IMG/VR virus record: IMGVR_UViG_2913123054_000005
Span: 1-37,915 of that record
DNA from: a virus
Lineage: Duplodnaviria > Heunggongvirae > Uroviricota > Caudoviricetes
Strand: one strand, 5' to 3'
Length of the DNA: 37,915 nt
A model generated the notes under the pieces. That model saw only the letters and a list, made by a program, of their open reading frames with translations. It did not search any database and was not told where the DNA came from. How positions within the stretch are numbered: the stretch's first letter is position 1; each line of letters begins with the position of its first letter. The position numbers were made by a program, and so were the translations under genes. Positions 31,414-32,346 of the stretch are shown one piece after another.

Positions 31414-31510
31414 ATGCCCTCCAAACTAAGTTTTATTAGATGTTAATTATCAATCTATCTTAGGTCAATAAAAACTAAGATTACTTAGTAATTAAAGAAA
31501 TGGTGCTCCT
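31414..31510. promoter_or_regulatory. OR-like immunity control region with CTAAG/CTTAG operator repeats
   Basis: aaactaagtt at 31423-31432; TCTTAG...CTAAGA at 31458-31480; palindrome ACTAAGattaCTTAGT at 31474-31489. Confidence 0.5.
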
Positions 31511-32137
31511 ATGGAAACGGTTGGTCAGCGTATAAAAGCTCTGAGAAGGGTTACCAGAACGTCCCAGAAAGAATTGGGTAAATTTTGTGGAGTAAGTGAC
31601 GTTGCTGTGGGGTACTGGGAGAAAGACATCAATGTCCCTGGTGGGGAAGCACTTTCAAAATTAGCGAAGTTCTTCAATACGTCAATAGATTACATTCTTT
31701 ATGGTGCTGAGTTTGAAGGCAAACTCGTCACAAACATGCGCAGAGTTCCTGTAATCTCGTGGGTTCAGGCTGGGCAGTTTACTGAGTGCAGGACAGCAGA
31801 AGTGTTTAGTGAAGTAGACAAGTGGGTAGATACATCATTAAAGATTGGTGATAACTCATTTGCATTGGAGGTTAAAGGCGACTCCATGACTAACCCTAAT
31901 GGCCTCCCAACAATACCAGAAGGCGCAACAGTGATTGTAGATCCTGATGCAGAACCCCGGCATGGAAAAATAGTCATCGCTAGACTTGATGGAACAAACG
32001 AAGCCACAGTAAAAAAATTAGTTATCGATGGCCCTCAAAAGTTTTTAGTGCCATTAAATCCCCGGTACCCCAACATCCCGATCAATGGTAATTGCCTCAT
32101 CATTGGTGTAGTCAAAGGAGTTCAATACGAACTCTAG
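31511..32137 (+). CDS. cI: CI-like repressor (HTH plus S24 LexA-like peptidase domain)
   Basis: 208 aa; N-terminal HTH (QKELGKFCGVSDVAVGYWEK), C-terminal GDSM serine motif and downstream Lys (VKGDSM...TVKK). Confidence 0.85.
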   Translation: METVGQRIKALRRVTRTSQKELGKFCGVSDVAVGYWEKDINVPGGEALSKLAKFFNTSIDYILYGAEFEGKLVTNMRRVPVISWVQAGQFTECRTAEVFSEVDKWVDTSLKIGDNSFALEVKGDSMTNPNGLPTIPEGATVIVDPDAEPRHGKIVIARLDGTNEATVKKLVIDGPQKFLVPLNPRYPNIPINGNCLIIGVVKGVQYEL

Positions 32138-32158
32138 CCCCCACCCTTTTCTCTAACC

Positions 32159-32194
32159 AAAACACCGAACTAAGAAAAGTTTGGTGTTTTCTCT
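32159..32194 (+). terminator. Hairpin terminator after cI (bidirectional-looking)
   Basis: aaaacaccgaact / agtttggtgtttt 13-bp stem with one G-U, then ctcttg. Confidence 0.55.
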
Positions 32195-32225
32195 TGCCAT
32201 TAAAACTAAGTTAAGTTAGATTTTA
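32195..32225. promoter_or_regulatory. OL-like operator repeats
   Basis: aaactaagtt at 32203-32212 repeats the OR motif; followed by taagttag. Confidence 0.35.
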
Positions 32226-32346
32226 TATCAAAGATAACGAACAGGCAGGACGCCCACGAAGTAGCCGCCTGGGGCATATGAAGTCCAGGATGATTCGTTG
32301 AGTCATGTTGTGCCACCAGGCACTCATGTTAAAGCAGGTGTATGAA

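Follow-up and report, generated by a model that had tools for sequence, protein, structure and literature searches.

We analysed a window of 37,915 nt (37.9 kb), the whole stretch of DNA at positions 1 to 37,915 of the virus record IMGVR_UViG_2913123054_000005 (Caudoviricetes), and the motif counts and expected counts given below refer to its full length. Our subject is the set of CTAAG/CTTAG repeats on either side of its cI-like repressor gene, candidate operators of an immunity region. The part of the window between 29.2 and 34.5 kb is a lambdoid early region, in which a cro-like gene on the minus strand and a repressor gene with helix-turn-helix (HTH) and S24 peptidase domains on the plus strand are divergently arranged, as in a P22 immC-type locus (Table 1). 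The cro-like product is 30% identical to P22 Cro and falls in the PHROG class transcriptional regulator/repressor; a Shine-Dalgarno sequence, GGAGGG, lies at 31417–31422 on the minus strand. A CII-like gene and a replication-initiator-like open reading frame (ORF) are also on the minus strand, and the plus strand 3′ of the cI terminator has small ORFs and, beyond them, yfdP- and yfdQ-like genes.

The repressor is 47% identical to P22 c2 over 205 aa and 48.8% identical to phage 21 cI. Its C-terminal domain matches that of lambda cI (E = 4e-28); for the N-terminal domain, the nearest structures are 1ADR, 2R1J and 3JXB, of the DNA-binding domain of P22 c2 (E = 6e-10). The segments VQAGQF, GDSMT and TVKKL align with VQAGMF, GNSMT and TFKKL of lambda cI, which comprise the Ala-Gly cleavage site and the Ser/Lys dyad, and on this alignment the protein carries the motifs of RecA-dependent self-cleavage. 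It is identical to the repressor of mEp460_4F5. The names attached by NCBI annotation are only 'LexA family protein' and 'Cro/CI family transcriptional regulator'.

CTAAG/CTTAG repeats around the repressor gene

A preliminary description of this DNA had proposed that the cro/cI intergenic region holds at least three CTAAG-type sites, one of them a 16-bp near-palindrome, and that the motif aaactaagtt recurs beyond the cI terminator. All of this was borne out. CTAAG is present at 31426 and 31475 and CTTAG at 31459 and 31484; the segment 31474–31489, ACTAAGattaCTTAGT, consists of perfect 6-bp inverted arms around a non-palindromic 4-bp centre; and aaactaagtt is found at 31423–31432 and again at 32203–32212, 3′ of the terminator hairpin.

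The motif scan of the whole prophage that had been suggested was run in several forms. CTAAG-N5-TTAG (CTAAGNNNNNTTAG) occurs at 3 sites against 0.13 expected, the raw count of 4 matches including the palindrome twice, and none of 100 shuffled sequences reached this count. For AAACTAAG there were 4 matches against 0.67 expected, again with none of 100 shuffles as high. When up to 2 mismatches to ACTAAGNNNNCTTAGT were allowed, 3 matches were found (31425–31440, 31474–31489, which is exact, and 32205–32220) against 0.66 expected, and all three fall inside the proposed immunity region. Relaxing the threshold to 3 mismatches yielded 10 matches against 8.1 expected, which is no enrichment, and weaker sites at 32169–32184 and 31449–31464 therefore cannot be called from sequence match alone. 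As a non-circular measure, we built a weight matrix solely from sites in other genera and compared it with 200 simulated sequences. The three strong sites scored 29.6 bits (at 32203), 24.9 bits (31472) and 23.8 bits (31423), and the next-best position in the window scored 9.7; maxima in the simulated sequences averaged 8.7 ± 3.1, with 21.0 the largest of the 200.

Two further candidates were discarded. CTAAGT does lie upstream of the minus-strand ORF that starts at 32785, as had been pointed out, at 32863 and thus 78 nt away. As an operator it was rejected: the hexamer occurs 6 times in the window on both strands together, within chance, and the copy at 32863 lacks an inverted partner and is outside the top 15 matrix matches. 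This copy overlaps the first bases of a match to the STnc100 sRNA family. Reading ATCAATCTATCTT as a site for integration host factor was likewise dropped, as the sequence departs from the WATCAANNNNTTR consensus.

Between cro and cI the sites form a set of three, designated OR1, OR2 and OR3 for the right operator, with centres separated by 24 and 25 bp; OR2, in the middle, is weak and the other two are strong. The centre of OR1 coincides with the predicted start of the cro promoter PR, and PR, as read from its hexamers, overlaps both OR1 and OR2. OR2 matches 8 of 12 specified positions, its matrix score is not above chance, and we called it from its position: the distances of 24 bp to OR1 and 25 bp to OR3 compare with 23 and 25 bp in P22, and it aligns with P22 OR2, ACTAAAGGAATCTTTAGTcaa. 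Its right half, CTT(A/T)GGTCAA, is conserved, but this is confounded with conservation of the PR −35 element. OR3 aligns with P22 OR3, ATTTAAGATGACTTAACT, and contains the predicted −10 hexamer of the cI promoter PRM. A consensus promoter scan of the plus strand revealed no convincing PRM −35/−10 pair and no −35 element of consensus quality, so PRM was placed by homology to the P22 annotation. Transcription from it would start near 31487, giving cI a 24-nt leader with a Shine-Dalgarno sequence, GGTG, at 31502–31505. Overlap with OR1 and OR2 is thus read directly for PR, and the overlap of PRM with OR3 is assigned by analogy with P22, without a −35 element.

On the left side, OL1 is the top matrix match of the window and lies within the putative promoter PL. 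The interval 32195–32260, put forward earlier for the left operator, includes OL1; its right end, from about 32234 to 32260, turned out to be the start of a conserved structured leader RNA. A second left-hand match, OL2, sits in the cI terminator hairpin and retains only its left half-site. The distance from OL2 to OL1 is 36 bp, compared with 35 bp in P22 and phage 21, and at the OL2 position relatives in Yersinia, Providencia and Proteus have a full CTAAG..TTAG site. In the lineage comprising Escherichia coli, Enterobacter, Kosakonia, Kluyvera and Rahnella the right half is GTTTGG, paired into the terminator stem, and in one close variant (L128) the left half is CCAAG. From these alignments, OL2 may be vestigial in this lineage, and the cI terminator appears to have recruited or replaced an operator at this position. 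No equivalent of OL3 was found near 32147, where the end of cI and the left arm of the terminator occupy the space.

Table 1. Positions of genes, candidate operators, promoters and RNA elements in the early region
Feature	Position	Strand	Sequence or elements	Remarks
CII-like gene	30591–31289	minus		Phage_CP76; PHROG 'CII-like activator'
cro-like gene	31213–31413	minus		66 aa; Pfam P22_Cro, E = 4e-11
OR1, candidate	31425–31440		ACTAAGTTTTATTAGA	2 mismatches to palindrome; 23.8 bits; centre 31432.5
PR-like promoter for cro	31440–31468	minus	−35 TTGACC (31468–31463), 17-bp spacer, −10 TAACAT (31445–31440)	promoter scan 9/12; start near 31433, placed by spacing
OR2, weak candidate	31449–31464		ATCAATCTATCTTAGG	in PR spacer, overlaps −35; called from position; centre 31456.5
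OR3, candidate	31474–31489		ACTAAGATTACTTAGT	perfect 6-bp arms; 0 mismatches; 24.9 bits; 21 bp before cI ATG; centre 31481.5
PRM −10, predicted	31476–31481	plus	TAAGAT	inside OR3; placed by homology to P22 annotation
cI-like repressor gene	31511–32137	plus		208 aa; Pfam HTH_3 and Peptidase_S24
cI intrinsic terminator hairpin (inverted repeat I7)	32159–32190	plus	13-bp stem, then TTTTCTCTT	−15.6 kcal/mol; z = −4.75
OL2, degenerate candidate	32169–32184		ACTAAGAAAAGTTTGG	terminator loop and 3′ arm; 3 mismatches; 7.6 bits; centre 32176.5
PL-like promoter	32194–32222	plus	−35 TTGCCA, 17-bp spacer, −10 TAGATT	promoter scan 9/12; start near 32229
OL1, candidate	32205–32220		ACTAAGTTAAGTTAGA	between PL −35 and −10; 2 mismatches; 29.6 bits; centre 32212.5
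Structured RNA	32234–32301	plus	P1 32236–41/32294–99; P3 32268–72/32285–89	68 nt; separate from operators
Small ORF, phrog_3195	32326–32622	plus		
Small ORF, phrog_3311	32540–32785	minus		81 aa
STnc100 match (Rfam)	32865–33087	plus		48.3 bits; gathering score 47

Conservation, specificity and the proposed switch

Repressor homologues were collected by scanning one genome per species, which gave 20 loci with cI proteins 63–90% identical to this one, in nine other genera (Enterobacter, Kosakonia, Kluyvera, Serratia, Rahnella, Yersinia, Rouxiella, Providencia and Proteus). When up to 2 mismatches are allowed, the palindrome is matched mostly at three offsets: about 30 and about 79 bp 5′ of the cI ATG and about 75 bp 3′ of the cI stop codon. 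The exceptions are two rearranged loci (L014 and L023) and a few isolated matches elsewhere. In the alignments the invariant blocks are CTAAG..TTAGAT (OR1, in 14 aligned loci), GGTCAA, the complement of the PR −35 element, AAACTAAGAT..TTAG (OR3, invariant or nearly so in 14 loci) and TTGAC...CTAAGTTAAGTTAGATT (PL and OL1), and intergenic sequence outside these operator and promoter blocks has diverged. Most of the 20 relatives have the OR3 equivalent at the position about 30 bp 5′ of cI, and OL1 is identical in 7 of 12 aligned sequences, these seven being the window and six loci from other genera. The −10 element of PR is TAATAT in the relatives, and TTGAC and TAGATT of PL are kept across genera. 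All 14 aligned loci carry the TAAGAT of OR3 unchanged, even at the two central bases, which vary in OR1 and OL1; this fits a double role as operator centre and −10 element.

Variation of two other kinds was seen in the collected loci. Within the E. coli lineage the PL −35 element (32194–32199) is degenerate, reading TTGCCA, TTGCTA or TTGTCA (compared in L089, L095 and L128), and other genera mostly have TTGACC. In a Rouxiella-like metagenome-assembled genome (MAG; L023, 1934–2000 and 2410–2485), a pair of sites resembling OR1 and OR3, with 49-bp spacing, lies about 430–560 bp upstream of cI; a second full copy of OR adjoins cI, with about 400 bp of apparently non-coding DNA between the copies. 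A Serratia MAG (L014, about 2010–2075 and 2418) has the OR1/OR3 pair at a similar distance and a single site beside cI. From their sequences, both look to be duplicated or rearranged operator regions.

The half-site varies together with the recognition helix of the repressor. In this immunity type the helix, GVSDVAVGYWEK, is nearly invariant in the 20 relatives and accompanies the half-site ACTAAG. P22, phage 21, Photorhabdus and Xenorhabdus combine VS(N/H)VAISQWE with TTTAAG, and Proteus and Morganella combine VNRVTVTGWEK with TGTAAG or TGTAGG; the operator layout is the same in all three groups. By alignment with c2, the substituted helix positions correspond to Asn32, Ser36 and Gln37 of P22 c2, which we take, from the c2–operator structures, to be base-contacting residues. 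The window has AACTAAG with SDVAVGYW where the P22/phage 21 immunity group has ATTTAAG with SNVAISQW, and heteroimmune specificity relative to P22 and phage 21 is to be expected from this difference. In six loci (L007, L010–L012, L014 and L023) the operators are kept, and a homologue of this Cro was not found upstream of cI. This persistence, and the covariation with the recognition helix, tie the sites to the repressor.

The preliminary description had taken the region for an immunity region, placing OR between cro and cI and OL beyond the cI terminator. Four independent counts support this reading: the gene identities, the homology of the repressor to c2, the position-specific conservation in the 20 loci and the match, almost every base included, to the annotated layout of P22 and phage 21. 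Taken together, the evidence makes it highly probable that the CTAAG/CTTAG sites are the operators through which repressor and Cro control a lysis-or-dormancy switch of the P22 immC type with a specificity of its own. We infer protein binding to the sites, the order of affinities, cooperativity, activation of PRM and the use of the same sites by Cro; repressor–operator binding and immunity specificity draw their support from operators that track the repressor across genera and co-vary with its helix.

In the proposed switch, CI, and presumably Cro too, would bind as dimers to 16–18-bp sites of the form (a)ACTAAG-N4-CTTAGT(t), three between cro and cI and one or two after the cI terminator. In a lysogen, CI on OR1 and the weak OR2 would shut off cro and the early-right genes, and CI on OL1 would shut off the early-left operon. 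When OR3 is filled, whether by CI in excess or, in lytic growth, by Cro, cI would be turned off, because OR3 contains the −10 element of the predicted cI promoter. DNA damage (the SOS response) would stimulate, through RecA, self-cleavage of CI at the Ala-Gly site by means of the Ser/Lys dyad.

Several points weigh against this proposal. A literature search found no binding data for this repressor. OR2 and OL2 match no better than chance and are placed by position and by analogy with P22; the right half-site of OL2 has been lost to the terminator stem, and in the close variant the left half is mutated as well. PRM was located by homology, and it has no recognisable −35 element. Finally, OR3 is the best palindrome of the set. 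Were it the tightest-binding site too, self-repression of cI would set in at low concentration, and affinities cannot be read from sequence.

The alternative that survives best accepts the sites as real protein-binding sites in a switch unlike that of P22: they might be used by Cro only or by CI only, there might be just the three strong sites (a two-site OR and a single OL), or the cI promoter might lie elsewhere, with OR3 having no part in autoregulation. The degeneracy of OR2 and OL2 and the homology-based placement of PRM favour it, as do the failure to find a homologue of this Cro upstream of cI in six relatives and the 24-nt cI leader with its Shine-Dalgarno sequence, against a nearly leaderless transcript in P22. 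In contrast, spacing and promoter overlap agree with P22 to within 1 bp, the TAAGAT of OR3 is invariant even at bases that vary in the other sites, and cI and cro are co-conserved in most relatives. We regard this alternative as unlikely overall, and it remains live for OR2, OL2 and PRM.

Two others fare much worse, since what is conserved across genera is sequence and not pairing. The idea that the inverted repeats work at the RNA level, forming hairpins or terminators in transcripts of cro, cI or PL, could appeal to the 32169–32184 match, which is inside a real terminator hairpin, and to the fact that OR1 belongs to the transcribed leader of cro and OR3 to the predicted leader of cI. Yet the arms are only 5–6 bp, AT-rich and separated by a 4-nt gap, so that the hairpins would be unstable; and relatives conserve the half-site sequence with no compensation, the signature of base-specific protein contact, whereas the adjoining leader RNA is rich in compensatory change. 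We consider this highly improbable. Equally remote is the view that the repeats reflect chance or the composition of AT-rich intergenic DNA with promoter hexamers and no dedicated binding protein, which accounts for the unenriched 3-mismatch matches, the weak sites and CTAAGT at 32863 but not for 3 sites where 0.13 were expected, matrix scores above those of all 200 simulated sequences, or the same sites at the same offsets in most of the 20 loci in nine genera with diverged flanks.

A structured RNA at the start of the PL transcript

The conserved RNA that limits the left operator interval is separate from the operators. It lies at the 5′ end of the PL transcript, beginning about 6 nt beyond the predicted PL start. 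By DNA similarity, 32236–32300 is common to SfV, SfII, SfIV, ST64B and about 1000 further E. coli genomes with other immunity regions. A closing helix, AACGAA/TTCGTT, encloses a nearly invariant 25-nt core, CAGGCAGGACGCCCACGAAGTAGCC, and a hairpin with a variable stem (CCTGG/CCAGG, CCCGA/TCGGG, CCAATG/CATTGG, CTACA/TGTAG or CCAGT/ACTGG) and a conserved loop, GGCRTATGAAG.

In 11 sequences, 96% of cells in the helices were paired, against 17–49% in slid controls. A covariance model, R1, scored the window at 96.4 bits and found 93 matches, 77 of them distinct; in this set 94% of cells were paired against 21–40% in slid controls, and 10 pairs showed compensatory changes, in 250 cells. Thermodynamic stability over 32229–32346 was not significant on either strand (z = −0.67 and −0.54), so the structure emerged from covariation alone. 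Wobble pairs were indecisive as to the strand, with 13 G-U against 24 A-C cells; judged by eye, the A-C cells probably come mostly from one clade at the loop-closing pair. The promoter/operator contexts upstream of the RNA fall into about 50 types when clustered at 70% identity. The RNA is found, among others, in the ymfJ leader of e14 in E. coli K-12 (L087:5111–5179, minus strand), in Shigella phage SfV (L082:2499–2566) and in L088–L167, and the first gene downstream is highly variable. R1 found nothing in the loci of P22, phage 21 or HK022, and the window holds a single copy. Rfam scans, at gathering threshold and by E-value, gave no match at this RNA, and literature searches on its core sequence and on the ymfJ leader returned nothing relevant.

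Pfam and PHROG annotation of the window revealed no N-like gene after PL. Farther along, a strong hairpin followed by a T-run, at about 33044–33089, lies between PL and the yfdP/yfdQ-like genes and has the appearance of an intrinsic terminator in the path of PL transcripts. On this circumstantial basis the RNA may be an antiterminator resembling put of HK022, or some other cis-acting leader element. HK022 put is likewise a structured RNA of about 65–70 nt within a few nt of the PL start, in a phage without an N gene after PL. Homology to putL was rejected: BLAST found no sequence similarity to the HK022 PL region, R1 is blank in HK022, and the architecture differs, put consisting of two adjacent stem-loops where the RNA described here has a closing helix around two hairpins. 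A second copy of put follows PR in HK022, in contrast to the single copy here. We tentatively raise the possibility, which we think rather doubtful in this full form, that the RNA represents a new class of leader, acting in cis to give the early-left transcript resistance to terminators, put-like in function, unrelated in sequence and fold, and portable across about 50 repressor/operator types.

Several features were recorded around this RNA. A hairpin, CATG-tt-GTGCC-acca-GGCAC-t-CATG (32305–32328), covers the likely start codon, at 32326, of the first small ORF, and this ORF and the convergent minus-strand ORF overlap by 83 bp, like ymfJ/ymfI of e14. The STnc100 match lies in a 440-bp gap between the minus-strand ORF and the yfdP-like gene; at its end are a long hairpin, GCGGTACCAG...CTGGTACCGC, and the run TCTTTTT (about 33044–33089). 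In other loci an rrn-type boxA (GCTCTTTAA, GCTCTTTAACAA) occurs about 87 nt after the leader RNA in 21 of 125 contexts, together with a short hairpin (for example L005, L006, L028, L084, L097 and L120). In many other contexts an alternative conserved motif, ..GCGCAGCAGGT..AACGTTCCGCCAGCCTGGCGATAAGGGCAA, is present 60–110 nt after it (L091, L094, L102, L108, L119, L123 and others), often followed by a small ORF encoding MIDFARKP.RQQAV.LN..EV. Neither motif is present in this window.

The leader RNA may matter more than the operators, being widespread, strongly covarying, unannotated and situated at the start of a lambdoid early-left transcript, and it may bear on terminator read-through in these phages.

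Comparison with known systems

With lambda the region shares divergent PR and PRM promoters with a tripartite operator and a second set of operators at PL, downstream of cI. The repressors have homologous C-terminal domains, with cleavage and catalytic motifs in common. The two systems are unrelated in the N-terminal domain and in operator sequence, and they place the sites in a different register. Lambda OR1 falls between the −35 and −10 elements of PR, with the centre of OR2 at −42 of PRM, and the sites here, as in P22, are about 12–17 bp further towards cro.

P22 offers a much closer parallel, as read from the curated P22 record and its sequence. Its immC region has the same order of cro, OR, c2/cI, terminator and OL/PL, and the phage 21 immunity region is nearly the same; the repressors are 47–49% identical to ours and the Cro proteins belong to the same Pfam family. 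Operator geometry is shared, with xTAAG half-sites around a 4-bp centre. P22 OR1 is directly downstream of the PR −10 element, and OR1 here is at the same position; P22 OR2 is in the PR spacer and overlaps the −35 element, TTGACT, as OR2 does here. P22 OR3 contains the PRM −10 element, TAAGAT, with the RM transcript starting 6 nt later, and the same TAAGAT is found here. Relative to the PRM start, the site centres are at −5.5, −30.5 and −54.5 in the window, where the start is predicted by homology, and at −5.5, −30.5 and −53.5 in P22, where it is annotated. OL1 lies between the −35 and −10 elements of PL in both, and the PL arrangement is also that annotated for phage 21.

The differences from P22 are equally clear. 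The half-site is ACTAAG here and TTTAAG there, and the corresponding helices are SDVAVGYW and SNVAISQW. In P22 the repressor transcript starts 4 nt before the ATG, in contrast to the 24-nt leader with a Shine-Dalgarno sequence predicted here. P22 has OL1–3, whereas the window has no OL3, and OL2 here is merged with the cI terminator, its right half lost. PL in the window is not followed by an N gene or a nut site. The operator set calls for no exotic reading, and is at most an uncharacterised specificity of the P22 family with OL2 absorbed into the cI terminator.

A literature search found no description of operators for this immunity type: PMC9836094 mentions mEp460 and the word 'operator' is absent from it, and a search for ACTAAG with 'operator' and 'repressor' returned nothing relevant. 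A statement in the same article, citing Kameyama 1999, has the mEp phages selected to span immunity groups. As a kind of system this is textbook, and its immunity type is the mEp460 one; the operator sequence is the part for which no description was found. In mEp460 and in vB_EcoS-569R4, vB_EcoM-689R6 and Kati, repressor identity is 99% or complete, and DNA identity over the region is 95–98% (98% for mEp460_4F5). In phages of the mEp460 type the module is without differences and the flanking genes are mosaic, and the module is present in 513 of 5426 complete E. coli genomes (about 9%).

The value of the operator set is modest, and it leaves the understanding of such switches unchanged. It supplies a likely consensus, aACTAAG-N4-CTTAGTt, and a promoter map for an immunity type carried by about 9% of complete E. 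coli genomes and by mEp460-like phages, of use in prophage annotation and in predicting heteroimmunity. Compared with the structurally studied P22 c2, the system offers a natural variant of specificity, from TTTAAG to ACTAAG.

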